Positions 5,792-26,900 of a stretch of DNA of 64,000 bases are shown here, piece after piece. Where the stretch lies: contig JBBRWS010000001.1 in assembly GCA_038249055.1 (NCBI GenBank), positions 78,244 through 142,243 of the forward strand, written 5' to 3'. This stretch comes from Minisyncoccia bacterium (GTDB lineage: Bacteria; Patescibacteriota; Minisyncoccia; Phycocordibacterales; UBA9973). Under the pieces are notes generated by a model. That model was not told the origin of the DNA and did not search any database. It was given only the letters and a program-made list of their open reading frames with translations. The stretch's first letter is position 1. Every line of letters begins with the position of its first letter. Both the position numbers and the translations under genes were made by a program.

Positions 5792-5826
5792 AAGACTCAC
5801 CATTTTTACGGTGGGTCTTTTTATTT
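5792..5826. terminator. bidirectional terminator between convergent genes
   Basis: AGACTCACC...GGTGGGTCT hairpin flanked by A-run and T-run. Confidence 0.55.
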
Positions 5827-9537: not shown

Positions 9538-9540
9538 AAT

Positions 9541-9720
9541 TAGAAAAGTCTTTCGATTTTTTGACAAACATGACGTAGGTAATGTGCTTAGGGTCACGCA
9601 AAAAAAGAGACTCACTTTCGTGAGTCTCTTTTCTCAACGCGTGAGCCCAGTAGAAATTCGATTGGAATAAAATTTATAAATAAAAATGACCCTAAACTTT
9701 CGTTTGTAGGGTCATTCTTT
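9541..9720 (+). repeat. Family A repeat, partial copy, with two terminator-like hairpins
   Basis: TCTTTCGATTTTTTGACA...GACGTAGG...GTGCTTAGGGTCAC shared with copies at 601 and 17128. Hairpins AGAGACTCAC/GTGAGTCTCT and AATGACCCTA.../TAGGGTCATT. Confidence 0.55.
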
Positions 9721-10215
9721 TATTATTCCAAATCCATGAAAATCTAATATTTCTTGGGTTTGGTCATTACCATAATCAAGCATTTTTATTAAACCATTAA
9801 ATTCACAAAAATTCTCTGGTTTGAGAAAATCAATACTCTTTATTTCTCTTTTGATAATTTTCTTTAGAAATTTTACCCATCGAGGATTAGAAGAGTTAAA
9901 AACATTACCCCTTGGTTGAATTATTATATAACCAAATAAGAATGCTTTTATTACTGGCAATAATGTTTCTTCTTCTTGATGTTTCTTAAAATACAGATAC
10001 TCTCTTCTGTTTGAAGATAATATATGAAAGATATAAAAAGGAATAGATAATATTTTATTTTTACCATAACGATTAGCTTTCTCATTAAAAATACCTTCAT
10101 CTTTATATTTTAAAAAACATTTAATAAGCAGAACAAAATTTATCCACGGAATTTTGATAGCATAGTCTCCATGTATGAAGACCAGTCTGCTCAATCCTTG
10201 AGTAATAATCTTCAT
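9712..10215 (-). CDS. hypothetical protein
   Basis: 167-aa ORF. Confidence 0.4.
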   Translation of the reverse strand: MKIITQGLSRLVFIHGDYAIKIPWINFVLLIKCFLKYKDEGIFNEKANRYGKNKILSIPFYIFHILSSNRREYLYFKKHQEEETLLPVIKAFLFGYIIIQPRGNVFNSSNPRWVKFLKKIIKREIKSIDFLKPENFCEFNGLIKMLDYGNDQTQEILDFHGFGIIKE

Positions 10216-10386
10216 AACTTTTTAAATTTTAGCTAGAAATTATGCGAATTTATCCATAGATTACTTTTTGTTTAGATAATTGTCAAATAAGTTAAGTCCA
10301 ATCCATATTCGAGTAAGGACCGTTTTTGCAAATTTATTGCACTAATCTAATTCATTACTATGTAATGATATTTTTAGTATACAAAA

Positions 10387-10425
10387 AAGCCCAGAATCAT
10401 ATTATTGGATTCTGGGCTTTTGTAT
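10387..10425. terminator. bidirectional rho-independent terminator
   Basis: GCCCAGAATC...GATTCTGGGC flanked by A and T runs. Confidence 0.6.
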
Positions 10426-10446
10426 TTTTAAGGCGTAGAGTATTGT

Positions 10447-10923
10447 TTATTGATTAAAGAATAGAACGCATTCTTCACCTTTTGGAATACTTGGAAGTTT
10501 CAGGGTTTTTTTATACCTGCAATTTTTTCCTTCGTATGATTCCGCTTCACCTCTCAAGATGAATGTTCTGGGATTATTTGTTGGACTTTTTTCAACCAAC
10601 TCTTTTCGTACAAAACGGAGAGAGATTTCTTTCCCATTCTTTGGATTAAAATCAAATATAAACATATTGATACCGCCTTTTTCATTAGGGTTTAATTCTC
10701 TTAATTTTCCCACAGTATTGGCAGGGATAACAAGAGAATCAACTCTTACCTCTGTTCTTATAAAAAAAACTGACGAACTTTTAATCTTGTAATCGTCAAG
10801 ATATTCAGTCCCAGCTATTTTTTGTTGCTCGGCGCAACTACAAAGATATAGAACTACAATGCTTAAAAAGGCAATTGGCATTAACACTTTAATTATCCAA
10901 GACCAAATTTTATTTTTCACCAT
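10447..10923 (-). CDS. putative lipoprotein
   Basis: N-terminal signal with lipobox-like LYLCSC. Confidence 0.5.
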   Translation of the reverse strand: MVKNKIWSWIIKVLMPIAFLSIVVLYLCSCAEQQKIAGTEYLDDYKIKSSSVFFIRTEVRVDSLVIPANTVGKLRELNPNEKGGINMFIFDFNPKNGKEISLRFVRKELVEKSPTNNPRTFILRGEAESYEGKNCRYKKTLKLPSIPKGEECVLFFNQ

Positions 10924-11104
10924 GATATATAGCTTTAAATCATTTTATTTATATCCTCAAAATGAGAAACAAATAAAACTATGACATTTGGTGGTATTAA
11001 ATCATATTTATATTGTAGTGTCAATTTTAATTCAAATTTGATAAAGTCCATATTTGTGGTATAACGGGGGAAATAGATAAATCTTCACTTAAAAAACAAA
11101 CCTA

Positions 11105-11749
11105 ATGTATTTATACAAAAGTTTTATATTGCTCATTATCGGGATAATATTTTTTGCTAGTTGCGAAAAAGAAGCATCAGATGGTCCGACAGATTCATTG
11201 TATATTAAATCAGCCGGAATCGATGAGGCGAAAGTCCTATGTATCGATGGAAGAGAAAGGTATTATTTTCCGAATGATATTTTGTTTATAATTCCTGTAC
11301 TAAAAAGTACTCCAGAGATTTTAAATAATTCTATGCTTAAAATAGAAGATTTTAAAATTTTGTCCAATAATCAAGTAAATTTTACCGTATCGGAGATAGG
11401 TTCTGAAATGATCGTCGTACCCGCTTATAAGCTGCCGTTTTGTGATTCTGATTATGATTTTCAATCCGAAAGTGGTGTTAAAAAATTCAATGGTATTTTG
11501 AAATCTGGTGATTTTGTTTTTGCTGTAAAAGTTACAGATGAAAAAATTAATATCAAAATTTTAGATTTAAAAACGAACTATTTAACTACAACCATTGCGA
11601 GTTATAGCAATAATGCTTTAATATTTAAAGTTGGTGCTGAAATATGGCAATTATGGTTAAGTAAAATTTCCAACAGGGGTAATATTTTTCAGATGTTTGT
11701 AGAAGGGAAGGGTTATATTTGTTATTCTTTGTATTTAGCTAAAAATTAG
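11105..11749 (+). CDS. putative lipoprotein
   Basis: signal peptide ending FFASC. Confidence 0.5.
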   Translation: MYLYKSFILLIIGIIFFASCEKEASDGPTDSLYIKSAGIDEAKVLCIDGRERYYFPNDILFIIPVLKSTPEILNNSMLKIEDFKILSNNQVNFTVSEIGSEMIVVPAYKLPFCDSDYDFQSESGVKKFNGILKSGDFVFAVKVTDEKINIKILDLKTNYLTTTIASYSNNALIFKVGAEIWQLWLSKISNRGNIFQMFVEGKGYICYSLYLAKN

Positions 11750-11760
11750 TAGGTATAAAT

Positions 11761-11797
11761 AAAAAAGGTCAATACTTAATAGTATTGACCTTTTTAA
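11761..11797. terminator. bidirectional terminator
   Basis: GGTCAATACT...AGTATTGACC with flanking A/T runs. Confidence 0.6.
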
Positions 11798-11814
11798 TTT
11801 AGATTAATTCATCA

Positions 11815-12171
11815 TCATTTCTTTAATTTATTTATTAATTCAATAGTAAAAGGAAATTTACCCCAAATGGGTTGTTTGTATTTCTCCTTTATACCATCAA
11901 TATAATAATAACCAATCTCGGTTTTTTTAAGATTAATTACTGTAATTTTCTTTCTAACAACAACAGTGTTAATTGTAGCCAAAATAATAAAAATAAGGAC
12001 TAAAATTACAACTGTTACAAATATTAATTTCCAGTCTGGTTCTTTGTTTGTAATTACTACAAAGGCTAAACTAATGAAAATTAATATAACAGAAATTATT
12101 GAGATTACAAGAAACGCAGAGTTTACCGGTTCCTTTGATACAGATAAAAAATACCTTTTTATTGTTTTCAT
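11815..12171 (-). CDS. small membrane protein
   Basis: 118 aa, two hydrophobic helices. Confidence 0.4.
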   Translation of the reverse strand: MKTIKRYFLSVSKEPVNSAFLVISIISVILIFISLAFVVITNKEPDWKLIFVTVVILVLIFIILATINTVVVRKKITVINLKKTEIGYYYIDGIKEKYKQPIWGKFPFTIELINKLKK

Positions 12172-12245
12172 CGGTTAGTTTTTTTTAAGTGAATTGATTA
12201 TTTAAAGAGAGTATTTTTTATAAATTTAACATTAGCATATATAAC

Positions 12246-12290
12246 TGTCAATTTGACAGATTTTATAGAATATTTATAGATTTATATGTA
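12246..12290 (+). promoter_or_regulatory. promoter/operator-like motif, copy 1 (palindrome TGTCAATTTGACA plus a downstream TATAGAT-like box)
   Basis: a perfect TTGACA sits 17 bp upstream of a TATAGA-like hexamer. The motif recurs at 12408. Confidence 0.4.
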
Positions 12291-12407
12291 GAGAGAACGA
12301 TGGTGCTTACATATTCATTATATTAATTCAATAAATATAACTTTTAGCATAAAAAAACCAATAATTACGTTTTTTACCATAGTAAATAAAACATTTATTT
12401 GGATGCT

Positions 12408-12452
12408 TGTCAATTTGACAGAGTTATACATATTTGATAGATTTTAGTCAAA
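12408..12452 (+). promoter_or_regulatory. promoter/operator-like motif, copy 2 (TGTCAATTTGACA palindrome)
   Basis: second copy, about 160 bp upstream of the 12611 gene. Confidence 0.4.
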
Positions 12453-12610
12453 TCATGTTTCTTAAAAATGCTTACAAATTGTATTGCTTGAGAGCAAAAC
12501 ATGCGTTTTTACAAATTCGCCCAAAATATTAAAGACTCGGGGTAACCCACTCTATATATAAAAAACCAATTTTTTTCTAATTTTTATTTATTTACTTAAA
12601 TCATTCTATT

Positions 12611-13246
12611 ATGAAAAAGTTAATTTTTGTTTTGGCGATTATGTTCGCTACAGTTGCTTATGTGAATGCACAGACTCCTGTAAATTTTAATCTTTCGATG
12701 CAGGTTGCAAAGTACATTGAAACGACTACGGGCCCGCTTGCTTTTAATTTTGGAACAGCAACTCACAACGTGTACTATGGTGCTCCTGGGAACATGGATT
12801 TGTACTATCCGGCCACTGGATCATGGGATCTCGCTTATGCAAATTGTGGATTTTCTGTAACTCTTGCAGGTGACAATCCGGCTAGCCAAGGTGTTCCGCG
12901 TTTTGCTAAAGTAGAAGAAGGTACTCATGGAGCTGGGTGGGATGTTTTGAATACCGTTTACCAGATTGGTATTTGGACTAATGGTGAAGTTCAGAATGAT
13001 GCTTTTGGTCATGTTTGGGGATTTGGAGCAAGTTCATTTCCTAAGACAGCAAATTTTACTGAAACTCCTCACAATGGTCAGGTTAAAATGACAATGCTTG
13101 CACACGTGAACTCACACTGGCAGAATGATAAAGATGCCGGTATTCCAATCAGAGAAACAGTCATTAATCCTGCTTTCACTTACCAGCAGTCGGCCGATGA
13201 AGGAACCTACACAGCGAATATGGTTGTTACTTTGGTAGCTCTGTAA
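12611..13246 (+). CDS. secreted protein (locally GC-rich gene)
   Basis: signal peptide MKKLIFVLAIMFATVAYVNA; GC well above the neighbouring DNA. Confidence 0.55.
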   Translation: MKKLIFVLAIMFATVAYVNAQTPVNFNLSMQVAKYIETTTGPLAFNFGTATHNVYYGAPGNMDLYYPATGSWDLAYANCGFSVTLAGDNPASQGVPRFAKVEEGTHGAGWDVLNTVYQIGIWTNGEVQNDAFGHVWGFGASSFPKTANFTETPHNGQVKMTMLAHVNSHWQNDKDAGIPIRETVINPAFTYQQSADEGTYTANMVVTLVAL

Positions 13247-13428
13247 TTATTAAGCATTTTTGTTAAAGTATCCTGTTAAAGGATTCTTAAATTTTAGAAA
13301 AGGCATCTCTATGAGGTGCCTTTTTTGCATCATGTAAATTTTGACAAAACATCAATATTATGATATATTCACAGCAAATTATTAGGATATTTGAAAGTTA
13401 AATACTAACTAAATGAAAGGAAAAAAGA

Positions 13429-13926
13429 ATGAAATTACTATTTGTTTTTGTTTTGTTAATACCAATACTTTGTTTATCTCAGGAAGTTGTATTGAAAAAT
13501 ATAAATATCCCTGGAGATAAAAGTTTAGGTGTTATAAATGGGGCAATATTGAGTGAAAACTTAATTGGTCCTCGTAAAGTAATTTTTGAGAAAAATCCAA
13601 ATCAAATGGTTCTACAAAAAATAGAAGAGAGAAAGTCTTTTCGTTTTGGACTAGAATCCTCTGATATGGATAAACTCAGCACTCTATATTCAGGAAAAAT
13701 ATTTTCTCCTGGAATAACTGAACCTTTTATCTTCGAGAATAAAACACCCGAAGAATTGTCAGTACTTGAAGTAGTTGTTTTTCCTGTAATATTGGAACAA
13801 CCATATACTTTATATATTGACTTGAAAGTTCAAGTTTCTTCAAAAACTGTTTCGGTGAATCAAATAGATTCTGATGACGCAGGAACTTATAATGCAAAAA
13901 TAACAATATATCTAACAGAAATTTAA
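13429..13926 (+). CDS. secreted hypothetical protein
   Basis: signal peptide, 165 aa. Confidence 0.45.
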   Translation: MKLLFVFVLLIPILCLSQEVVLKNINIPGDKSLGVINGAILSENLIGPRKVIFEKNPNQMVLQKIEERKSFRFGLESSDMDKLSTLYSGKIFSPGITEPFIFENKTPEELSVLEVVVFPVILEQPYTLYIDLKVQVSSKTVSVNQIDSDDAGTYNAKITIYLTEI

Positions 13927-13937
13927 AAAAAGCTGGA

Positions 13938-15140
13938 ATGAAAAGAAAAATTTTATTTTGTTTAACGCTTATCTTATTTATAAGTTATGCGTATGCTGTA
14001 AAAGTGTCACCAGTTCGGTTTGATATGACTATTGCTCGTGGTGTAAGTCAAGAATTTGTTATAAATTTAACGGGTACTAAAGGGTCTTATAATCAGGATT
14101 TATTAATATATCCTTCAGACCTTTTTATGTCTCGTGTTGGAACTTTATCTTTTGACACTATTGTAGGAAATAAAAATTCTGCAATAAATTGGATAAAAAT
14201 GGAAAATAATAAAATTTCTTTACTTGAAGATCAGGCAAAAGAAATTAAATTTAAAGTTTCCATACCTTCCAATGCTACACCTGGAGAGTACTATGCTGTG
14301 ATTATGGTAGAACCTGATAAATTTACTAAAATTAAGGATGAGAAGAATCCTTATGCTTTTAAAATGAAAACAAGGGTCGCTGTAGTCGTGGTTTTAGATG
14401 TTCCCGGTAGAGCTTATGAAAAAAAAGGAGAAGTTACTGAAGTTAAAATTCTTGAAACAGACAGCATTGTAAAGATAGCTTCTACTTTTAAAAACACTGG
14501 TGATATACATCTAGATGTAGTTGCTGAAGCCATAATAAGGAGTGCAGATGGTAGAGTTAACTTTGGGAAGTTTGATTTAGGAGCTTTGAGTAGTTCAAAA
14601 AAAGAAGCTTTTATTTTTCCTGATGCTATGCGCGATTTTGAAGGAGCTCTCAGAAGGCAATTGCCGACTGGTGACTATATGGCAGAAGTGTCATATAACT
14701 ATGGTTATGACTTCAAAAAAGCCAAGCAAATTGAAAAATTTTCTGTAAAAAGGAAAATATCACTTAATGAAAACAGTAACGAATTCCTTAGTTTAAAAAA
14801 CGAGGAGTTGAGACTATTGATTCCAAAAGGTGGAAGGAGAACTCAAGTGGTCACAGTTACAAATACCGACTACAGAGTTTTGAATGTGGATATAGCATCT
14901 AGCGATTGGGTTCAAGCTACTCCAAGTATTTTGAATCTAAAACCTGGCGAAGTGCGTAATGTTATGCTTACAATTTCTGCAACTGATTACGATTTGTCTC
15001 AAGAAAAAGAGACGACTCTATCTTTTAAAACAGATAGAGGGAAAAGTGCTGAAATGAAAGTATTTATAACTGGATTGAAAGAAAATCTTGTGAAAAAAAC
15101 CGAAACAAAAAAAGAAGTTAGTCTAAACCTTAAAAAGTAG
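13938..15140 (+). CDS. secreted hypothetical protein, possibly secretin-associated
   Basis: signal peptide; immediately precedes and is co-oriented with the secretin gene. Confidence 0.5.
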   Translation: MKRKILFCLTLILFISYAYAVKVSPVRFDMTIARGVSQEFVINLTGTKGSYNQDLLIYPSDLFMSRVGTLSFDTIVGNKNSAINWIKMENNKISLLEDQAKEIKFKVSIPSNATPGEYYAVIMVEPDKFTKIKDEKNPYAFKMKTRVAVVVVLDVPGRAYEKKGEVTEVKILETDSIVKIASTFKNTGDIHLDVVAEAIIRSADGRVNFGKFDLGALSSSKKEAFIFPDAMRDFEGALRRQLPTGDYMAEVSYNYGYDFKKAKQIEKFSVKRKISLNENSNEFLSLKNEELRLLIPKGGRRTQVVTVTNTDYRVLNVDIASSDWVQATPSILNLKPGEVRNVMLTISATDYDLSQEKETTLSFKTDRGKSAEMKVFITGLKENLVKKTETKKEVSLNLKK

Positions 15141-15143
15141 GAA

Positions 15144-16454
15144 ATGAAAAAGTTAAGTTTAATTTTAGTAGTTTGTATCAGCATGCTTATAGTAAGCTGT
15201 GCTACAATTCGTGAACCTATCCCTGTTAACAAAAAAGTAACTTTGACTCAGGCAGAAATCCAAAGTTTGGAACAAACAGAAGACAATGCCACAGAGGTAA
15301 AGTATCTTTCGATAACAGAAGAACAAAAGGGTACCGCAACGCATCCTCTTGTAAGTAATGTATTTGTTGAGACCGACATTCGTGCCGTCTTGATGGATAT
15401 ATCTACTCAGTCAGGTGTTAATATAATTCCTGATAATACAGTTGAAGGCTCAGTATCACTTACTCTTAACAATGTATCTCTTGAAAAAGCATTCGATATG
15501 ATTTTGTATCCTGGTGGATACAAATATCGTTATGTACAAGATGGTAATTATTACATTGTGGGTAAATCACTTCCGGAGAATAGTAGTTTTGACGCATTAA
15601 CTGTTACAAAGGTGATTAAAACAAACAGAGGTGCTGAAAAGGTACTTTCTCAGTTATCTTCATTTTTTCAGTCGTTCGTTAAAGCTGATGGTCAGACTAT
15701 CACAATCACTGCAACTCCCGATATGATAAATCGTATTGAGAGAGATATCGCATTAATCGACAAGTCAAAAAGATTGATTGAAATATCGGCACAGTTTGTG
15801 ATGGTAGAGTGGAGTAAAGGTGTAAACCTTGGAGTACAATGGAGCGACATTAATTTGAGTGCCATTGGTATTGCAGACATTATAAAAGGTGGAGCGACCG
15901 CTATGTCTTCAAATCTTACTTCAAGTCTTAGTGCCTTTTTATCTTCAAATGGATACGACACTAAAATCAAAACAATCGCTGAGCCCAGGATTGTCGTAGA
16001 AGATGGTGAAAAAGCAGAACTGAACATTACCGAAGAGCATTTATTTTTAATACTCTCTGGTGGAGGTGCTGCTTATAACTATTTTACAACGAAGGAAGTA
16101 TCTGTAGGTATTAAACTGAAAGTACAACCCTTCGTTACTCGTGATGGTCAGGTTCGTCTAGCTATTAATCCCGAAGTTGCTGATATTATCGGCGAAAGGG
16201 AATTCAAGTCAAATGGTGGACCTAGTCAGAAGTTGCCTATAATTGCTCGTCGCTCTACTCAGACTACATTAAAAGTTCAGAATGGAGAGACAATAGCGAT
16301 AGGAGGTCTGATAACAAAAATGGATCAAAATAAGAAGAGTGGAATTCCATTCTTTCGCAAGATTCCATTAGTTGGTTTTGTTTTTGGAAGCCAAAATAAG
16401 GCAGCCAAAGAAACTGAATTGGTAATTTTTATCACTTCCAGGGTAATTGGTTAA
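15144..16454 (+). CDS. secretin (PilQ/GspD family) lipoprotein
   Basis: C-terminal secretin-like signature ETIAIGGLITKMDQNKKSGIPFFRKIPLVGFVFG...ELVIFITSRVI; N-terminal lipobox LIVSC. Confidence 0.6.
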   Translation: MKKLSLILVVCISMLIVSCATIREPIPVNKKVTLTQAEIQSLEQTEDNATEVKYLSITEEQKGTATHPLVSNVFVETDIRAVLMDISTQSGVNIIPDNTVEGSVSLTLNNVSLEKAFDMILYPGGYKYRYVQDGNYYIVGKSLPENSSFDALTVTKVIKTNRGAEKVLSQLSSFFQSFVKADGQTITITATPDMINRIERDIALIDKSKRLIEISAQFVMVEWSKGVNLGVQWSDINLSAIGIADIIKGGATAMSSNLTSSLSAFLSSNGYDTKIKTIAEPRIVVEDGEKAELNITEEHLFLILSGGGAAYNYFTTKEVSVGIKLKVQPFVTRDGQVRLAINPEVADIIGEREFKSNGGPSQKLPIIARRSTQTTLKVQNGETIAIGGLITKMDQNKKSGIPFFRKIPLVGFVFGSQNKAAKETELVIFITSRVIG

Positions 16455-17127: not shown

Positions 17128-17472
17128 TTACAGAGAGAATGAAAATCTTTTCGATTTACTAATCGTCTGACGCACGTGACGTAGGGAACAGAGACCGCGA
17201 GTACGCTTATCGAACCTTACAGGTTCAGTACACCTTTTCGTTTTGATTAACATCAAAAAACGAAAAGCTTTTCGATTCTCTGACGCAAGCAAAGCAGTTT
17301 GCTTGCTTAGGGTCACAACAAAAAAACCGACATAAGTCGGAATTTTTTGTGAGGGTTCTCGAGATAGAACCAGTTGGTTCATTGCCCAGTAAAGCTTGTT
17401 TTACTAATTTTACTTTAAAAGTTTTAACCTTCTCGTGAGACTATAAAAAGTGACAAAAGTGACAGTACTTAG
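17128..17472 (+). repeat. Family A repeat, copy 2 (two tandem tRNA-fragment-like units plus conserved 3' part)
   Basis: 17258-17472 is about 85% identical to 703-938. Contains TTCGATTCTCTG, a 25-nt perfect hairpin, then TAGGGTCAC, which reads as the tRNA-Glu T-loop/acceptor 3' strand split by an inserted hairpin. Also contains the terminator-like CCGACATAAGTCGG followed by TTTTTT. Confidence 0.7.
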
Positions 17473-17482
17473 GCATATAAAG

Positions 17483-18787
17483 TTACTGACTAGTGTCATC
17501 TTTTCTTCTTTGAGCTTCTATAATATTATCTGATAATATTTGCCATTTACCTCTTTGGCCTCTAACCATTCTTTTTATAACAATATCATTTGCTTCTTCT
17601 AGATCAAACCCAGCAGGAATTTTTTGACCCTCTTGATTTTTAATTTTCTCAAATGCTTTATCCATATGCTCTTTTAATCCCTCTGGTACTTTGATATCTT
17701 GAGATGTATTTTTGTTATTAGAATTACCACCACTTAACCTCCATGAAGGTTTCATATCATCCCACAATCTAGTAGTTAAAAATCTATTATTATCTGGTGG
17801 GTACCACGCAAAACTGTATATACCTTGGCTCTTCTCTTCCTTGGATTTTAAATTATCAAAATACATATCTAATTCGGATAAATCTTTTTTTAAATCTTCA
17901 CCCCAAATAAATCTTTGGTCTGATTCCAAAAATAGAGGAACCGCTCTTTTGTGTAATTTATCTGATGAAGTAAATATATTAGTGAATGGTAGATAATAAA
18001 GATATGCAATATCTGCTCTATTACTTTTACGATCCCTAGATATTAAACCAGTGCTAGTGCATAAAATAAAAAATATATCTACTTTTAAAACATATGAAGC
18101 ATATGGTGCAAAAGATTGAATTGGAATCATATTTTCTTTATTCCACATACTTATTATTTCCTTAAATGCTTTGTCGTTAATATTAAGGAAATCTCTTACT
18201 AGTTTAAAAGTTTTATATCTATTACCATGACCTTTTACTATTTTATCTGCTGTATCATAAGCATCTTCTAGTGACTTAGGTTTTTTAAAATCTGAACCTA
18301 ATATATTTTGTATAAGATTCAAATAATAATCATAATCAAATTCTGCCAATAATTTTCTCCACAATGAAGCTGATTCTTTTTCAATTTCTTCAAACTCTTG
18401 TTTTTGCCATCTTTGAAAAGCTTTAATTTCTGGGTGTTGATCATACACAACACCACGTTTACCATTTTCCATAATATATGATTCTCCATGATTAAGTATC
18501 GGGTATCTTGAAAAACTAACTGGATAACCTAAAAGGTCACCGATACATAATTCTCTATGATGTGTGTTTGGACTAGGCCCCATTTCTGGAACTTTTTTTG
18601 ATATCACTTGAACAATTTCTTCTGCTGATCTTGTTTCTGACTCTTTGCTTAAATCAGCTAATGTTTCAATGTAAAATAATGGGGTTATTATTGAATGATA
18701 AAATGCATCAAGCCAAACAGCTTCATCTTCACTTAAAGATTGAAGTAATGATTTATCAAAAATTATTGTTGGTCCCAAGGCTGACAT
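17483..18787 (-). CDS. hypothetical protein, last gene of the thsB-thsA operon
   Basis: 434-aa ORF abutting the upstream gene (18787/18788). Confidence 0.5.
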   Translation of the reverse strand: MSALGPTIIFDKSLLQSLSEDEAVWLDAFYHSIITPLFYIETLADLSKESETRSAEEIVQVISKKVPEMGPSPNTHHRELCIGDLLGYPVSFSRYPILNHGESYIMENGKRGVVYDQHPEIKAFQRWQKQEFEEIEKESASLWRKLLAEFDYDYYLNLIQNILGSDFKKPKSLEDAYDTADKIVKGHGNRYKTFKLVRDFLNINDKAFKEIISMWNKENMIPIQSFAPYASYVLKVDIFFILCTSTGLISRDRKSNRADIAYLYYLPFTNIFTSSDKLHKRAVPLFLESDQRFIWGEDLKKDLSELDMYFDNLKSKEEKSQGIYSFAWYPPDNNRFLTTRLWDDMKPSWRLSGGNSNNKNTSQDIKVPEGLKEHMDKAFEKIKNQEGQKIPAGFDLEEANDIVIKRMVRGQRGKWQILSDNIIEAQRRKDDTSQ

Positions 18788-19492
18788 TTATATTTTATTA
18801 GAGGATGTTCCAATTATAGTAATAATTTCCTTAATTATTTCATAACTTTTTTCATAATTATTATCAAGTAATCTTTTATATAAATTTTGATATGATTTAA
18901 AATCAGAAGGTTGGGCTGTTTTTAAGTGAATAATATCATCTCTTAATTTAATTAATTCCATAAGCCCAATCCATCTTTCATAATCCTCAGCTATGTTAAT
19001 TCCTGTTAAATTTTTTATGACCTTTTTAATCTTATTTTCTATAGACCAGCTAGACTCTATTTCAGTTTTTGAAATGCGTTTATCTTTTTCATTATAAATA
19101 AAATCACTTGGTATAATTTGATTAATAAAAGATTCTAAAGATGTAATAGAAAAAATACAAAAATTAATATTCTGCAACAAAAGTAAATTTATTTTTTTAA
19201 CATCATTTTTTATTTCAACTTCAAGTCTTCTTATTTCCTCTAGACTTTTATATGTTGAAAAAAGATAAAACTCAATTGGATTTGGTGCTGGAAACATTAT
19301 GTTGGGGAATTTTACAGATCCTATATCTCCATGATTCATAACAAAAGTTGTCCCAGGTTCATGTCTTTTAAGTGGATCTTCAATAATTTCTCCGTCAAAT
19401 AAATGAGAAATATTTAATATGTCTTTTGGTTCAAGGTTTAAAGTTCTTGGTTTAAATCTTACTTGTATTTGGTTTGATTTTAGTTCACTCAT
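18788..19492 (-). CDS. hypothetical protein with a C-terminal Rx4H (HEPN-like) motif
   Basis: LIKLRDDIIHLK near the C-terminus; lies inside the operon. Confidence 0.45.
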   Translation of the reverse strand: MSELKSNQIQVRFKPRTLNLEPKDILNISHLFDGEIIEDPLKRHEPGTTFVMNHGDIGSVKFPNIMFPAPNPIEFYLFSTYKSLEEIRRLEVEIKNDVKKINLLLLQNINFCIFSITSLESFINQIIPSDFIYNEKDKRISKTEIESSWSIENKIKKVIKNLTGINIAEDYERWIGLMELIKLRDDIIHLKTAQPSDFKSYQNLYKRLLDNNYEKSYEIIKEIITIIGTSSNKI

Positions 19493-19493
19493 A

Positions 19494-20075
19494 TTATTTA
19501 TATATACAAATATTATTTACTATAGGATATAAAACTTGAAAAATTTGACCTAAAAATACACCAAATACTATTGCATAAATTAATAAAACTAACCAGTGAT
19601 CTTTACCGTTGTTTATCTCTCGAAATATCTTAAATGTTCCTTTTTTATTCAAATCATTTTCTGAATTTTTATCACCAAATAATTCTTTATACAATGTTCC
19701 AATAAATATAATAATTGTATAAAATAACCCAAAACCTATGAATACTTTTAGTGAGCTGTCTGAAATGCGCAATTCCATTGGAACTTTACAATATTCCTGA
19801 GCAATGAATATGATTAAAGAAAATCCTGCACCAGCAATAAAAAGAGATTTAAAGATTGACATACCAGCTTTAATCCAAATTATTATAAATAATATAGACA
19901 AGAAAAATAGAACTATAATTGTTGTTAAGCTATTCATATTAACACCCAAAATCTTTGATAGCATACCTATAAAAATAACACCAATAACAAAAATTAAAAA
20001 TTTAATGAATTTATCTTTTTTTTCATTCTCAAATTTTTTATCAAAAATTAATTTAACCTTTTTATATAATTTCAT
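19494..20075 (-). CDS. integral membrane protein (4 predicted TM helices)
   Basis: hydrophobic helices; operon position. Confidence 0.5.
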   Translation of the reverse strand: MKLYKKVKLIFDKKFENEKKDKFIKFLIFVIGVIFIGMLSKILGVNMNSLTTIIVLFFLSILFIIIWIKAGMSIFKSLFIAGAGFSLIIFIAQEYCKVPMELRISDSSLKVFIGFGLFYTIIIFIGTLYKELFGDKNSENDLNKKGTFKIFREINNGKDHWLVLLIYAIVFGVFLGQIFQVLYPIVNNICIYK

Positions 20076-20091
20076 ATTTAATTTAAATCTA

Positions 20092-20997
20092 TTAACTTAT
20101 AGAATTTAAAGCACTAGGAATTATGTTTTTTGCAAAATCAGCATATTTTGTTTGTAATTTTGTAAATTCTATTAATTCATCTACGTTTATTTTATATTTA
20201 GTTATGTCTTCATCACGAAGAACAATCGTCATTTTTTCACAATAACTCTTGCCTGAACATGAAGCTATGAATGACCTAACTATTTCTTTATAAACTTCCT
20301 CTCTTTGCATTTTGAGTCTACCATTACCAGTTCCAATAAGAGGGATAGATATATGTTCTTTTGCTCCATATGAAGATATATAAGACCATAAGCCACCTAG
20401 TGTTCTTGATAGTCCATCTTCATCTGCTTCAACTCTAGAAGCATTCAGTTTGTGCGAGTTAACGACAAAATAAAAAGCTTTTTTCTTATCATCGGTTTCG
20501 ACTCTCACAGTAGTTCCAAGTATGTATTTTCCATCATTTTTTTGATCAGAATAGATTTTGCTCCTAAGTTCTTTGGATATTTTTTGTTTAATAACGGAAT
20601 GTTTTCCGTCAAAGTATTTTTTAATAATCATAGATTTTACACTGTGAGCAACTTGAACACTTCCATTAAGGTTCATATCAAAATCAGAATTAACAGGTAC
20701 AATATAGGCAGATTTAACTTTTTCAATACTCCCTATATTTATTGCAAGTTCAATATCACGGTTATTTATTTTAAAAACGAAATTATTTTTTGGTCTATTT
20801 TTTGAGATACTATAAATAAAGGAAATGACTATAGCTATTATTAAACTAGATGTTTTTTTAAAAATAATTGCTGTTGACTCAAAAAATGGGAAAAATTCTA
20901 CTAATGCAATAATCACAGTAAAAAGACCTAAGACGCTTAATATGTCTTTAACCATAGACCAAATTCGTTTTAATTTAAACCATCTGCCACTTATCAT
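20092..20997 (-). CDS. thsA: ThsA-like effector: N-terminal TM helices plus macro domain
   Basis: two N-terminal hydrophobic helices. Macro-like motifs SAYIVPVNSDFDMNLNG (compare AIVNAANssLlgGGG) and ISIPLIGTGNGRL (compare IAFPaIStGvyGyP). 4-nt ATGA overlap with the TIR gene. Confidence 0.55.
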   Translation of the reverse strand: MISGRWFKLKRIWSMVKDILSVLGLFTVIIALVEFFPFFESTAIIFKKTSSLIIAIVISFIYSISKNRPKNNFVFKINNRDIELAINIGSIEKVKSAYIVPVNSDFDMNLNGSVQVAHSVKSMIIKKYFDGKHSVIKQKISKELRSKIYSDQKNDGKYILGTTVRVETDDKKKAFYFVVNSHKLNASRVEADEDGLSRTLGGLWSYISSYGAKEHISIPLIGTGNGRLKMQREEVYKEIVRSFIASCSGKSYCEKMTIVLRDEDITKYKINVDELIEFTKLQTKYADFAKNIIPSALNSIS

Positions 20998-21500
20998 AGA
21001 TTTAGATCTGTATAAACTGATTCCTTATAATGATATGGTTCAGATTTTCCTTCTCTCGTATATGATTCATGAGAGGATGGCCATTTTTCTATTGCTCGTT
21101 GTATTATAGCTCTATTAAATGACACATGGATAGCCAGTTTATTTTCTCTAAGTATTAATGGACACCTTGTTTCATCGATAGATCTTTTCCCATTTAGATT
21201 TACGGCTATTATAGGTAGACCTAATTTTAAGGCTTGTTCGATTTCCCATCTCACGTATGTATTTTGGAATTTTGTTTTTTCTCCGATAAGTAGAATAAAT
21301 ATTTTTGAATTTTTAATTCTTTCTCTCAAGGCTGTTTTTATTGAATCTTCACTGCTCCATGAACGAATTTCATTTAAATCATGTGCATTATTGAAATCAA
21401 AAACTGTATTATCATTTTGTTTCCATGCCTGCATTAATCGATAATAGTGAATATCACTATCTGCGTCGAATGCTGTATATATTTTACTTCTATATGCCAT
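20994..21500 (-). CDS. thsB: TIR-like (DUF1863 / ThsB-like) domain protein
   Basis: KIYTAFDADSDIHYY...IFILLIGEKTKFQNTYVRWEIEQALKLGLPIIAVNLN matches the ThsB layout, including the conserved Glu in VRWEI. Confidence 0.65.
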   Translation of the reverse strand: MAYRSKIYTAFDADSDIHYYRLMQAWKQNDNTVFDFNNAHDLNEIRSWSSEDSIKTALRERIKNSKIFILLIGEKTKFQNTYVRWEIEQALKLGLPIIAVNLNGKRSIDETRCPLILRENKLAIHVSFNRAIIQRAIEKWPSSHESYTREGKSEPYHYKESVYTDLNL

Positions 21501-21784
21501 ATATTAATGTTATTTTTATAATGTGTCCTCAAGATGTTTTTGGGCATACATATTATATACCCCCATGTAAATATTTGACAACAGTTTTGTAATAAAATCA
21601 ACACTATGTAAAAATATAATGATTACGTCAACACTTTTCAAAAATCATCGATGTTTTTATGATAAAATTCATATTTTAAAGGATATTTTGGAACTAAAAA
21701 TATGATTAGCTAGAATTCTAAAAATACCTTTAAAATTGCAATTTTTAGGGTATAAATCAACTAAATGTTTGGTATACTTGTGGT

Positions 21785-22195
21785 ATGGAATACCAAGTAC
21801 AAATTGATGAACCAAAAACAGGACCTAATAAGGGAGATATTATTTTAGAAATAACTGACGTTATGTTACATTCTACTCTTAAGGAAACTAAGTCAGTTGG
21901 TAAGACAATTGATAGGTCTATTGAACAAAATCAACCAGGAAGAATTTATTCTAAAATTGAAACTAAAAACCTAAGTAATGAAAATACTGATAATAATAAA
22001 ATTCAATTTTTAAATATGGTTAAACAAGATCCTAATATGATAGCGATGTTACAGAAATATAAGCAACAGGGTAAACGAGTATTTTTTCATTTTCCTAAAG
22101 AAGGAGTTCCTGTATTTGCAGGGAAAGATACAAAAGAATTTATGAAAAGTAAAAATGGCAAGAGAATTATCAGAGGTGTTGCAAAAAATAAATAA
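21785..22195 (+). CDS. hypothetical protein
   Basis: 136-aa ORF. Confidence 0.4.
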   Translation: MEYQVQIDEPKTGPNKGDIILEITDVMLHSTLKETKSVGKTIDRSIEQNQPGRIYSKIETKNLSNENTDNNKIQFLNMVKQDPNMIAMLQKYKQQGKRVFFHFPKEGVPVFAGKDTKEFMKSKNGKRIIRGVAKNK

Positions 22196-22374: not shown

Positions 22375-23658
22375 ATGAGTAAACTCATATGGACTACGGT
22401 CCAAAGAAAGGTTAATGATCTTATCCCTCAAAAGATCAATCCTCGTAAAATATCTGACAAGCAAATGTCAGATATCAAGAAAAGTTTGCAGAAGTATAAT
22501 TTAGTTGAGATTCCTGCTATTGATAAAACAGGAGTTATTTTGGCAGGACACCAAAGGATTAGGGCTTTACAGTTATTAGATCGTGGAGAAGAAATAATTG
22601 ATGTAAGAATTCCAAATAGAAAGCTTACAGAAATAGAATCGAAGCAATATCTAATTGCTTCAAATAAATTAGGTGGTGACTGGGATTATGATCTCCTTAA
22701 ATCTTTTAACATGGAGCTTCTTCAGCTCGCAGGGTTTGAAGATATGGAAATTGCTAAATTCTGGGATGATGATACAGAAGTTAAAAATGATTCTTTCGAT
22801 GTTGAAAAAGAATTAAAGAAAATAAAGGAACCTAAAACAAAATTAGGAGATATTATTATTCTCGGGAAACACAAAATTCTTTGTGGTGATTCAACTAAAC
22901 CAGAAAACTTAAAAAGATTACTAGGAGATGAGAAGGTGTCTATGATTTATAGTGACCCCGTCTACAATCTTGATATAGATTATGATGGTGGAATTGGTGG
23001 AAATAAAGAATACGGAGGTAGTGTAAAAGATTCCAGAACTTTTGAAGAATATAAAACATTTATTCGAGAAAGTTTAGAATCAGCACTTGCTGTATCTAAT
23101 CCGAATACTCACGTTTTCTATTATTGTGATCAAGTCTACATCGGATTAATTCAGGATATATACAGATCGCTTGGTGTATCTAATAAACGAGTGTGCTTGT
23201 GGCTGAAGAATTCACAGAACCCTGTACCTAAAATATTCTGTAATAAAGCATATGAACCTGCTGTCTATGGTATTCGTGGACGACCATACCTTGCAGAATC
23301 AGTAACAAATCTTAATGAAGTATTAAATAAAGAATTTGGAACAGGAAATGAACTTGTAGCACAAGTTGATGATTTTCTTGAGATTTGGACTGCTAAAAGA
23401 CTTTCCGCTAAAGACTATGAACATGCAACTTCCAAACCTATAACTCTCCATGAAAAAGCTATTAAACGTTGCACAAAACCGAATGACATAATTTTAGATA
23501 GTTTCTTGGGTTCAGGTAGCACTCTTCTTGCAGGAGAACAATTGGGTCGAAGAGTATATGGCTTAGAGCTTGAGCCAAAATTTTGTGACTTGATAATAAG
23601 ACGTTACGAATTATTTACTGGTAAAAAAGCTCAGATAGAATCCTATGAAGAAAAATAA
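22375..23658 (+). CDS. ParB-like nuclease domain fused to an N6-adenine/N4-cytosine DNA methyltransferase (beta class)
   Basis: ParB N-terminal domain (HQRIRALQLL). Motif IV SDPVY sits before the FxGxG motif I (ILDSFLGSGSTLLAG), which is the beta-class order. Confidence 0.75.
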   Translation: MSKLIWTTVQRKVNDLIPQKINPRKISDKQMSDIKKSLQKYNLVEIPAIDKTGVILAGHQRIRALQLLDRGEEIIDVRIPNRKLTEIESKQYLIASNKLGGDWDYDLLKSFNMELLQLAGFEDMEIAKFWDDDTEVKNDSFDVEKELKKIKEPKTKLGDIIILGKHKILCGDSTKPENLKRLLGDEKVSMIYSDPVYNLDIDYDGGIGGNKEYGGSVKDSRTFEEYKTFIRESLESALAVSNPNTHVFYYCDQVYIGLIQDIYRSLGVSNKRVCLWLKNSQNPVPKIFCNKAYEPAVYGIRGRPYLAESVTNLNEVLNKEFGTGNELVAQVDDFLEIWTAKRLSAKDYEHATSKPITLHEKAIKRCTKPNDIILDSFLGSGSTLLAGEQLGRRVYGLELEPKFCDLIIRRYELFTGKKAQIESYEEK

Positions 23659-24061
23659 ATCACAAGATCAATTCTTTGAAGAGTTGAGGAAAGTTCCCAT
23701 TGTCCAAGTCGCTTGTGAAAAAACAGGGCTATCTCGCAATAGTGTCTATCGTTGGAAAAAAGAAGATAGTGAATTCTCAAAAAAGATGGACCTGGCGATG
23801 GCTGACGGCGTTGCGTTCGTGAACGACATGAGCGAATCACAATTGCTTACTATGATCAAAGAAAAGAATTGGTCAGCAATTTCTTTTTGGTTGAAACATA
23901 GAAATGATAATTACAAGAGTAAGATAGAAATTACTACAAAAGAAGATTTTGAAGAGCTTACTCCTGAACAAGAAAAAATTGTTAGAGAAGCACTTAAACT
24001 AGGAGCAACTATTACCAATAATCAAAATGAAGATTATGGAAAAGATAAAAATAACTCCTGA
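23645..24061 (+). CDS. phage terminase small subunit-like HTH protein
   Basis: HTH segment VACEKTGLSRNSVYRWKKE; directly upstream of and overlapping the large terminase. Confidence 0.45.
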   Translation: MKKNKSQDQFFEELRKVPIVQVACEKTGLSRNSVYRWKKEDSEFSKKMDLAMADGVAFVNDMSESQLLTMIKEKNWSAISFWLKHRNDNYKSKIEITTKEDFEELTPEQEKIVREALKLGATITNNQNEDYGKDKNNS

Positions 24062-25499
24062 GTTGATGGAGATAATGATTAAGGATCGTAAAGTAAGAAC
24101 TGAAATCACCAAGAAAAGTCATTGGTTTTTCTTTCATTTCTATTTTTCTCACTACGTAAAATACGAGACTGCTCCATACCAAAATGAAATATTTAATCTT
24201 ACTCAAAATGAGGACTTGGGCAACTTATATATTGTTGCCTTTAGAGGAAGTAGTAAATCGACAATTCTAAATACATCTTATTCAATCTGGTCAATTCTAG
24301 GAGAACAACAGAAAAAATTTGTTTTAATTTTAAGTAAAACACAAACTCAAGCAAAGCAACACATGATGAACCTAAGAAGTGAATTAGAAAGTAATAATCT
24401 TCTAAAAAATGACTTAGGTCCGTTTAAAGAATTTTCAGAGGAATGGGGTTCTTTCTCTTTGGTCTTTTCAAAATTGAATGCCAGAATTACTGTTGCTTCT
24501 TCTGAGCAAAGTATTAGAGGATTAAGACATAATCAGAATAGGCCTGATCTCGTTATAGGAGATGACGTGGAAGATGTAGATTCAGTAAAAACCAGAGAAG
24601 GAAGAAATAAAACTTACGAGTGGTGGACTAGTGAAGTAATTCCAATTGGACAAAAGAATACTAGATTTGTACTTATTGGAAATCTTTTACATGAAGATTC
24701 TTTGTTAATGAGAATAAAAGAAAATGTTGATAAAAAAGAAATTGATGGAATATTTAAGGAATATCCATTAATTAGAAATGAAAATATACTATGGCCAGGT
24801 AAATATCCTTCAATGGAAGAAGTTGAAAATGAAAGAAGAAAAGCAGGTAATGAATATTCTTGGCAAAGAGAATATTTATTACATATAGTTCCAAATGAAG
24901 AACAAGCTATTTATCGTGAATGGATAATGTACTACAACGAAATACCAAAGGGTTTGAAAGACTGGCAAGGATATTCAATGAATGAGGAAATTAGAATAGG
25001 TATAGATTTAGCAATCTCTCAAAAAGAAACCGCTGATTATACTGCCATGGTTCCTGCATTAGTTATGGGAGAAGGTAAAGAAACTAAAATATATATCTTA
25101 CCTAAAATTATTAATAGAAGAATGACTTTCCCTGAGACTGTCGATTTATGTAAAGTGATTCATACTTCTTATTGTGAAAAAGATTGGAAAACCCCAACTT
25201 TAGTAATTGAAGATGTCGCTTATCAAAGAGCATTACCTCAACAATTAGAAAATGAAGGTATCACTAATGTAAAAACAATTAGACCTGGTAATCACGATAA
25301 AAGAAGTAGACTTGTTATGACTGCTCCAATGATAAAGTCTGGAAAAATTCTTTTCCCTCTAACAGGAGCAGAGGAATTAATTTCTCAGATTGTTCATTTT
25401 GGTGTAGAAAAACATGATGACTTAGCTGATGCCTTTTCAAATGTTGTATTAAATGTTCTTGAGGATCCTCCTTATGTGCCCAGATTCTTTTTTGTTTAG
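24027..25499 (+). CDS. phage terminase large subunit
   Basis: Walker A-like AFRGSSKST, Walker B-like LVIGDDVEDVD, C-terminal nuclease-like region. Confidence 0.7.
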   Translation: MKIMEKIKITPELMEIMIKDRKVRTEITKKSHWFFFHFYFSHYVKYETAPYQNEIFNLTQNEDLGNLYIVAFRGSSKSTILNTSYSIWSILGEQQKKFVLILSKTQTQAKQHMMNLRSELESNNLLKNDLGPFKEFSEEWGSFSLVFSKLNARITVASSEQSIRGLRHNQNRPDLVIGDDVEDVDSVKTREGRNKTYEWWTSEVIPIGQKNTRFVLIGNLLHEDSLLMRIKENVDKKEIDGIFKEYPLIRNENILWPGKYPSMEEVENERRKAGNEYSWQREYLLHIVPNEEQAIYREWIMYYNEIPKGLKDWQGYSMNEEIRIGIDLAISQKETADYTAMVPALVMGEGKETKIYILPKIINRRMTFPETVDLCKVIHTSYCEKDWKTPTLVIEDVAYQRALPQQLENEGITNVKTIRPGNHDKRSRLVMTAPMIKSGKILFPLTGAEELISQIVHFGVEKHDDLADAFSNVVLNVLEDPPYVPRFFFV

Positions 25500-25577: not shown

Positions 25578-26900
25578 ATGGAAACAACCAATATAGGGCT
25601 AATATATAACCCAATAATAGCAACCGAAACAAGGATTAAATATGTGCTGTATGCACGAAAATCGACTGAATCTGATGAGCAACAAGCTTTATCAATAGAT
25701 TCTCAAGTTAAGGAAATGACAGCCATAGCAGAGCGTTTAAAGCTCAATGTAGTAGCCATAAAAAGAGAATCACACTCAGCTAAAGCCTCAGGTCAAAGAC
25801 CTGTATTTAAAGAACTATTAGAGGAGATTAATAAAGGTATCTATAACGGAATACTAACCTGGGCACCTGATAGACTTTCAAGAAATGCAGGAGATCTAGG
25901 TACTGTTGTTGACCTTATGGATGAAAAGAAATTAATTCATATCCAAACCTTTGGACAAACTTTTTCTAATTCACCAAATGAAAAATTTCTCCTAATGATT
26001 TTATGTTCTCAAGCAAAACTTGAGAATGATAATAAAAGTATAAATGTAAAACGTGGACTAAGAGCGAGGGTAGAGATGGGTTTGTGGCCGTGCCGTCCAC
26101 CAACTGGTTATACAAAGTTTAAAAGAATGGATCAGAAATGTGAATCAATTATTGATCCAGTTCGTGCACCTGTAATAAAACAAATATTTGAAAAAGTTGG
26201 TTATCAAAATTGGAGTGGTAGAAAAGTATTTCATTGGCTAAAGCATGATCTTGATTTTAAAACAGAAACTAATATGCATTTAAGTTTGGGTAATTTATAT
26301 GTTCTACTTTCAAATACTTTCTATTATGGAAAGTTTGAGTTTCCAAAAGGATCAGGTAATTGGTACAACGGAGCACACGAACCGATCATCTCAAAAGAAT
26401 TATATGATTTAGTTCAAGGACAAATTAAAAGCCAAACCATGGAACCAAGATCTAAACAAAAAGAATTCGCATTCACTAGAATTATGACTTGTGGTTTGTG
26501 TGGTTCAGGAATTACAGCTGATGAGAAATTTAAACATCATAAGGATGGAACATCTAGTCGCTATGTTTACTACAAGTGTACTAGGACGAAAGATTCAAAG
26601 TGTAAAAGTGGTTACATAAACGAAGATGACTTAATCAATCAGTTACAGAATCTTATTGATGACCTTGAAATACAGACGGTCCCGATGAGAGAAAAGATTA
26701 CAAGTGAGGTAAAAAGATTTAAGATTTTTGAAAGTATGTTATTAGGAAGAAAAAGCCCTGTGGTTATTAAAGATATAGATATACGTAATTATGCCAAGTT
26801 TATACTCCAAGAGGGGTCTATGGAGGAAAAGAGGGAGTTCTTAGGATGTCTGAAAAGTGAGATATTATTAAGTAATAAGAAAATTGAACTAAAGGTTTAG
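25578..26900 (+). CDS. large serine recombinase (resolvase/invertase N-terminal domain + recombinase domain + zinc ribbon)
   Basis: YVLYARKSTESDEQQALSIDSQ catalytic-serine region; CGLCGSG...YYKC zinc ribbon. Confidence 0.85.
   Translation: METTNIGLIYNPIIATETRIKYVLYARKSTESDEQQALSIDSQVKEMTAIAERLKLNVVAIKRESHSAKASGQRPVFKELLEEINKGIYNGILTWAPDRLSRNAGDLGTVVDLMDEKKLIHIQTFGQTFSNSPNEKFLLMILCSQAKLENDNKSINVKRGLRARVEMGLWPCRPPTGYTKFKRMDQKCESIIDPVRAPVIKQIFEKVGYQNWSGRKVFHWLKHDLDFKTETNMHLSLGNLYVLLSNTFYYGKFEFPKGSGNWYNGAHEPIISKELYDLVQGQIKSQTMEPRSKQKEFAFTRIMTCGLCGSGITADEKFKHHKDGTSSRYVYYKCTRTKDSKCKSGYINEDDLINQLQNLIDDLEIQTVPMREKITSEVKRFKIFESMLLGRKSPVVIKDIDIRNYAKFILQEGSMEEKREFLGCLKSEILLSNKKIELKV

Follow-up and report, generated by a model that had tools for sequence, protein, structure and literature searches.

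The 64,000-nucleotide stretch of DNA analysed here (the window; Minisyncoccia bacterium, contig JBBRWS010000001.1, positions 78,244 to 142,243) carries on its minus strand, at 17483-21500, an array of five genes headed by the two genes of a type II Thoeris defence system, thsB and thsA, and continued by three genes designated TM193, HEPN234 and PIN434 (hereafter the trio). The best explanation overall, to which we assign a probability of about 0.75, is that this array consists of the known Thoeris system and three independent, uncharacterised genes, all of them cargo of a defence hotspot on a small integrative island. In the preliminary description of this DNA the operon was put forward as an undescribed system, with the trio as either an accessory of Thoeris or an independent module hitch-hiking in the same operon. 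Of these two options our results favour hitch-hiking. They do not support the operon as a whole being an undescribed system: the trio does not form a module, whether its own or an accessory to Thoeris, but consists of three genes, given their separate distributions and the position of PIN434 outside the exchanged cassette described below.

The five-gene array and its Thoeris pair

The five open reading frames were all found as previously described, and because each of the products has homologues elsewhere, they are real genes and not chance reading frames. From the promoter-proximal end they encode ThsB (20994-21500, 168 aa), ThsA (20092-20997, 301 aa), TM193 (19494-20075, 193 aa), HEPN234 (18788-19492, 234 aa) and PIN434 (17483-18787, 434 aa), separated by gaps of -4, 16, 1 and 0 nt, respectively. 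The top sigma-70-like site of the interval 16.4-22.4 kb (TTGTCA-18-TATAAT, 11/12, 21581-21552, minus strand) lies 5' of thsB, and a terminator-like hairpin followed by a T-run (17327-17340, minus strand) lies 3' of PIN434, so that a single transcription unit comprising the five genes is plausible.

ThsB matched the Pfam family ThsB_TIR (PF08937; 4.6e-21, 75.5 bits, cut-off 21.2) and, over its full length, the PADLOC model ThsB1 (1.7e-72); among PDB chains it matched 8v6t (3.9e-27, full length) and the ThsB of 9uv0 (3.8e-8). The Glu of the VRWEI motif had already been proposed as catalytic, and in agreement with this E86, within VRWEIEQ, falls in the alignments opposite the Glu of 'HEID' (8v6t) and that of 'REEID' (9uv0 ThsB), being the putative conserved catalytic Glu of this TIR-like signal producer. 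In ThsA, hydropathy analysis revealed two N-terminal transmembrane (TM) helices (residues 19-37 and 43-61), residues 85-261 matched Pfam ThsA_Macro (PF20016; 1.9e-30) and residues 15-275 matched PADLOC ThsA1 (2.1e-44), while the solved Macro domain of the Bacillus amyloliquefaciens Thoeris ThsA (8r66/9uuz) was matched at about 1e-5. The Macro motifs quoted earlier for this protein were also located, YIVPVNSDFD at 98 and SIPLIGTGNGRL at 217. Two TM helices and a Macro domain are the published architecture of the type II effector (bioRxiv 10.1101/2024.01.03.573942), which has been renamed ThsC in a 2025 preprint (bioRxiv 10.64898/2025.12.03.692087). With their genes adjacent and overlapping by 4 nt (ATGA), ThsB and ThsA make up, as judged from their sequences, a complete type II Thoeris pair, a known system, which is what the preliminary description had suggested for these two genes.

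The pair resembles the type II Thoeris of B. amyloliquefaciens Y2 in its two overlapping genes, its ThsB_TIR protein with the Glu residue and its effector with two TM helices and a ThsA_Macro domain, but it differs from that system in its location, a small island in an uncultured bacterium of low GC content, and in having three extra genes behind it in the same predicted transcription unit. In type II Thoeris (bioRxiv 10.1101/2024.01.03.573942) histidine-ADP-ribose (His-ADPR) is made by ThsB and bound by the Macro domain of the effector, whose presumed action is to impair the membrane. By analogy, it is reasonable to suppose that the ThsB of the window, through its TIR domain and E86, would sense infection and make an ADPR-derived signal (His-ADPR in B. 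amyloliquefaciens), and that this signal would be bound by the Macro domain of ThsA, whose two TM helices would in turn abort the infection by damaging the membrane.

Cassette exchange in an island hotspot

Two related loci (L097 and L098) share the flanks of the window array, with 97% amino acid identity in PIN434 and 95.5% in a ParB-methylase, but what these flanks enclose is a type I cassette of the cyclic oligonucleotide-based anti-phage signalling system (CBASS; L097, 8087-9990; L098, 6422-8325), made up of a 68-aa gene and of genes for a 1TM effector (PADLOC 4.7e-64), for a CD-NTase (5e-80) and for a 129-aa TM protein. DNA homology between the window and L097 stops at the first cargo ATG, this ATG included, and resumes about 12-14 nt before the ATG of PIN434; the flanks of the window and of its CBASS-bearing relative share 92% DNA identity towards PIN434 and 79% towards the methylase. 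These breakpoints define the exchanged unit as 18801-21494, comprising thsB, thsA, TM193 and HEPN234, and leave PIN434 as a conserved flank gene 3' of the exchangeable cassette. A Thoeris cassette and a type I CBASS are swapped in one cargo slot at base-precise boundaries.

The divergent regulatory region that separates the cargo operon from the neighbouring gene p136 (21501-21784) is also conserved with L097, through the first cargo ATG. Two 18-nt direct repeats lie within it, at 21598-21615 (TCAACACTATGTAAAAAT) and 21628-21645 (TCAACACTTTTCAAAAAT), offset by 30 nt; both are kept in L097 and are candidate operator sites. We postulate that the cargo genes are transcribed divergently from this conserved promoter region of the island and that PIN434 is most likely co-transcribed by read-through, since the conserved sequence ahead of its ATG is only about 13 nt long. 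The trio would share a transcription unit with Thoeris because it sits in a cassette-exchange hotspot.

On the other side of the regulatory region, all on the plus strand, lie the genes of the island core, namely p136 (21785-22195), a conserved small gene, and those encoding a ParB_N + N6/N4 DNA methyltransferase (22375-23658), a terminase small subunit-like protein (TerS, 23645-24061), the terminase large subunit (TerL, 24027-25499; phrog_38, 2e-73) and, directly after TerL, the large serine recombinase that serves as island integrase (25578-26900). The island spans about 9.7 kb and has as chromosomal flanks a secretin operon on the left and DsbD and copper ATPases on the right. Its context had been described as phage-like genes and a serine recombinase in an island; the island context stands, but the phage-like genes come down to the ParB-methylase, TerS and TerL, and no portal, capsid or tail gene was found between the cargo and the chromosomal genes. 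No convincing att-like repeats were found around 16.4-27.6 kb, which is what one would expect of a serine recombinase, and TerL matched GenBank phages at about 25% identity only, which yielded no helper candidate.

A metagenome scan with the island methylase identified 472 relatives, and the best 80 loci (L099-L178) were taken as the island survey. Relatives found in named genomes are metagenome-assembled genomes of the Candidate Phyla Radiation (CPR)/Patescibacteria. The island core is conserved in these best 80 of the 472 loci wherever the contig is long enough. Among the same 80 islands, PIN434 was detected at one locus, ThsB at four by tblastn and TM193 by one distant match, and HEPN234 was not found. 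The divergent operon could be traced in 28 islands, giving 126 proteins, of which 20 are LexA-like S24 peptidase repressors, usually encoded by the first divergent gene (e.g. L101, L107, L112, L121). The remaining cargo includes proteins with ThsB_TIR (six by Pfam), ThsA_Macro, caspase (three), PD-T4-3/GIY-YIG (PD-T4-3, four) and SAVED (one) domains, besides OLD/GajA/AriA-like ATPases and several PDC candidates. The S24 repressor gene is absent from the window island, as it is from L097, L009 and L096, so that its cargo promoter may be unrepressed or otherwise regulated.

As a defence-cargo hotspot on a small integrative island, the locus is similar to the defence hotspots of prophages and phage satellites, such as those of P2/P4 and the cargo of phage-inducible chromosomal islands, where core genes likewise flank a slot in which unrelated defence systems interchange. 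Unlike these, its core consists of the serine recombinase, TerS, TerL and ParB-methylase, with usually a LexA-like S24 repressor in the family, and the island family has no capsid, portal or primase genes. A literature search retrieved no published description of the family, and its gene content suggests that it may be an undescribed family of satellite-like elements carrying their own large terminase.

A sister island (L112) also carries a type II Thoeris, with ThsB 44% and ThsA 23.5% identical to those of the window; it is followed there by a second ThsB and unrelated genes, and TM193, HEPN234 and PIN434 are absent. By gene size, the order ThsB-ThsA-185-233-194 in L112 resembles the window layout, a candidate match that was rejected given that the 185-aa protein is the second ThsB and the 233- and 194-aa proteins are unrelated to the trio.

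Three separately distributed genes behind Thoeris

TM193 is a small membrane protein without a match in Pfam, PADLOC, NCBIfam or PHROGs. Hydropathy analysis supports the four TM segments previously described for it, all of them strong, and a possible fifth one around residues 75-93 was judged by eye. Its 17 homologues include, on islands of the same type, one that tails an array of type I restriction-modification (RM), SduA_C (Shedu) and YgjP genes (L011) and another that tails an array of type III RM, AAA_13 and a 509-aa protein (L012); a third tails a KAP NTPase and 438-aa protein pair in L096, whose recombinase is 95% identical to that of the window, and a fourth stands alone beside the methylase (L009). 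TM193 is a promiscuous tail gene of unrelated defence cassettes within the same island family.

Two further observations concern the tails of such cassettes. In L097 and L098 the 129-aa multi-TM protein, which is not detectably homologous to TM193, ends the CBASS cassette just before PIN434, in the position that TM193 has relative to Thoeris, and small TM proteins at cassette tails may be a recurring feature. The 438-aa protein of L096 (8680-9996) and a 363-aa protein of L007 (6908-7999) are 43% identical to each other and have no family match; they follow different NTPases (KAP NTPase in L096, AAA_13/PDC-S06 in L007) and may be a shared partner or effector.

In another reading, the ThsB signal would drive TM193 and/or HEPN234, perhaps together with PIN434, as additional effectors or regulators, and the operon would be a new multi-effector variant of Thoeris. 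This would fit the tight packing of the trio (gaps of 16, 1 and 0 nt), the swapping of four genes as a single block and the great diversity known for Thoeris effectors, which include RNases and TM proteins (bioRxiv 10.64898/2025.12.03.692087). We nevertheless regard it as very unlikely, given that TM193 tails four unrelated cassettes, that a complete effector, ThsA, is already there, that the trio yielded no match to Macro, SLOG or any other known signal-binding domain, and that none of TM193, HEPN234 and PIN434 was found with Thoeris outside the window among 79 PIN434 genome loci, the 80 islands and the TM193 and HEPN234 contexts. TM193 and HEPN234 are better seen as genes that would act independently inside one exchangeable cassette.

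For HEPN234, fold prediction returned a HEPN four-helix fold preceded by a beta-rich domain that takes up roughly the first 70 aa, and the Rx4H motif, RDDIIH at 184, has an invariant R184 and H189, in line with the HEPN-like motif noticed earlier in the 234-aa protein. The best structural matches include toxins of toxin-antitoxin (TA) systems, namely the HEPN toxin of HEPN-MNT and SO_3166, and on this modelled fold HEPN234 is a HEPN protein and a predicted RNase. At the sequence level, the Pfam family DUF3644 scored 20.1 bits, below its gathering cut-off of 27.6, the sole PADLOC match was a weak one to Cas13a (E 0.0054), none of the PADLOC HEC models was matched, and a profile search against PDB sequences gave spurious matches only. 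DUF3644 belongs to the recognised HEPN families (PMC3710099), and one protein that contains it, HEC-08, has been validated in defence. HEPN234 is like all of these (the HEPN-MNT toxin, SO_3166, the DUF3644 family and HEC-08) in its HEPN fold and invariant Rx4H; it differs in its distinct N-terminal beta domain, in lacking the zinc fingers present in HEC-08 and in having no MNT partner.

The 28 homologues of HEPN234 include three located behind an Xre helix-turn-helix (HTH) gene and adjoining a serine recombinase (L002-L004) and one that stands alone (L005). In L002 and L003 (6499-8798) the homologues have 265 aa with a C-terminal extension and follow a 68-aa Xre-type HTH gene; the recombinase beside them differs, being 31% identical to that of the window, and the arrangement is a TA-like layout on another recombinase element. 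The 463-aa (L005) and 460-aa (L004) proteins encoded next to HEPN234 homologues were considered as relatives of PIN434 and rejected, since they are not related to it. Most likely, HEPN234 acts on its own, as an RNase of the Rx4H type that serves as a toxin or as an abortive-infection effector, and its N-terminal beta domain would be a sensor or an autoinhibitor.

PIN434, described earlier as a 434-aa protein without any motif, proved to have one at the level of fold: structure prediction points to a PIN domain that is split by a helical insert and followed by a C-terminal extension, each of about 130 residues, and that has D11, E41, D45, D259 and D276 as conserved acidic residues, and VapC is among the best structural matches. 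PIN434 is thereby predicted to be a previously unrecognised PIN-like nuclease. Unlike other PIN-domain nucleases (VapC toxins, SMG6/Nmd4, Nob1/Utp24), it has a core split by an insert, a C-terminal extension and a length of 434 aa, and unlike the VapC toxins it has no VapB-like partner gene. No match was obtained in Pfam, PADLOC, NCBIfam or PHROGs, nor with a profile against PDB sequences; no relatives were found among viral contigs, and a fold search of the viral proteins in BFVD gave nothing at E <= 0.001. The family is nonetheless large, with 2,426 clusters at 50% identity at E <= 1e-3 and 1,022 at E <= 1e-30, its members being nearly all of 400-435 aa, unannotated, and spread over CPR bacteria, Proteobacteria, Acidobacteriota, Planctomycetota and archaea, with most of them located elsewhere than on islands of this type.

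No conserved neighbour of PIN434 was found in 81 loci except the island methylase in a CPR sub-clade, and ThsA, ThsB, TM193 and HEPN234 were all absent from these loci. At the +/-1 positions, 102 Pfam families were represented among 123 proteins. Close PIN434 genes (61-86% identity) follow varied genes, PDC-S06 and the 363-aa protein in L007, an unrelated 365-aa gene in L093 and an S24 repressor plus a 72-aa protein in L111, or have nothing upstream (L006, L015, L016, L025). In three Limnobacter genomes (L071, L072, L085; 5951-7912) the same 652-aa gene directly precedes the PIN434 homologue, which could be a lineage-specific pairing; the four AAA_15/AAA_21 and three OLD-TOPRIM proteins met in the neighbour scan may be these genes. 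PIN434 is a conserved flank gene of the window slot, and its product is predicted to be a metal-dependent nuclease; the family is widespread and occurs as solo genes.

Alternatively, PIN434 could belong to the life cycle of the island rather than to its cargo, for instance as a nuclease that takes part in excision, replication or packaging or that interferes with a helper phage. At the island end of one sub-clade it is the last gene, conserved behind variable cargo (L006, L007, L015, L016, L025, L093, L097), but it occurs in only 1 of the 80 methylase-anchored islands, its family of about 2,400 clusters extends over many phyla, archaea included, and largely away from islands of this kind, and no structural match was found among viral proteins, so that this role seems extremely improbable.

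The two predicted nucleases might alternatively stabilise the island as addiction toxins, or act in conflict between elements, with no direct anti-phage function and with TM193 as a possible immunity or antitoxin-like partner. TA toxins are among the best structural matches of both (the HEPN toxin of HEPN-MNT, SO_3166, VapC), the Xre HTH gene gives relatives of HEPN234 a TA-like layout, HEPN234 and PIN434 are both tied to serine-recombinase elements, and the distant neighbourhoods of PIN434 are not strongly enriched in defence genes. However, no conserved small antitoxin gene accompanies PIN434 in the 81 loci, no HTH gene adjoins HEPN234 in the window, and the slot is otherwise occupied by recognised defence systems; we consider this alternative unlikely, bearing in mind that TA and abortive-infection roles are not mutually exclusive.

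Limits of the cargo reading and its significance

Several observations weigh against our reading of the array as known Thoeris plus independent cargo genes. The first concerns the Thoeris signal: of the six residues that contact His-ADPR in the published structure of the B. amyloliquefaciens ThsA (D100, N133, Q135, S194, R240, Y277), pairwise and three-way alignments show only two conserved in the window ThsA (S194 = S181, R240 = R227), the other four being replaced (D100 by S90, N133 by K121, Q135 by M123, Y277 by R261). The adenine-binding Asp of the Macro pocket is accordingly Ser90 in the window ThsA, whereas it is retained in the ThsA of the sister island L112; overall, the window Macro domain is 25% identical to that of B. 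amyloliquefaciens in the three-way alignment. Because four of the six published contacts differ, the identity of the signal should not be assumed, and the ligand of ThsA may differ from His-ADPR. Furthermore, the four cassette genes are tightly packed and exchanged as a block, which makes functional coupling within the cassette possible; on a single short contig (L095) a HEPN234 homologue lies directly before a PIN434 gene; and the distant neighbours of PIN434, scanned at +/-1 at about 70 loci, are weakly defence-like, with about four OLD/Gabija-like ATPases and about four methylases among the 123 proteins.

From the hotspot context, anti-phage roles of the trio are plausible, the wider neighbourhood of PIN434 adding weak support. 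A bolder statement, that uncultured low-GC bacteria harbour an undescribed satellite-like family with its own TerS/TerL and a precise exchange hotspot, and that PIN434, HEPN234 and TM193 are new stand-alone anti-phage genes, is offered tentatively, as a possibility well short of even odds.

Two features of the window outside the island can be added. The plus-strand cluster at 13429-16454 ends in a PilQ/GspD-type secretin (1.8e-40), unexpected for a typical Patescibacteria host. At 5821-7785 on the minus strand, a 654-aa protein has as its sole match a weak one to a Polbeta nucleotidyltransferase domain (9.8e-6), and several open reading frames without family match are found around it (8134-13926).

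The Thoeris pair itself adds little beyond a divergent Macro pocket, where the adenine-binding Asp has given way to Ser, a hint that the ligand may vary, and the array makes clear that stop-to-start packing in a hotspot alone is no proof that genes work together. The main value of the locus lies in its context, a compact, terminase-bearing island family, present on more than 470 metagenome contigs, with a slot that exchanges whole defence systems. Hotspots of this kind have been productive sources of new defence genes, and this one yields three candidate genes for testing, including a member of a large, cross-phylum and unannotated family of predicted split-PIN nucleases.

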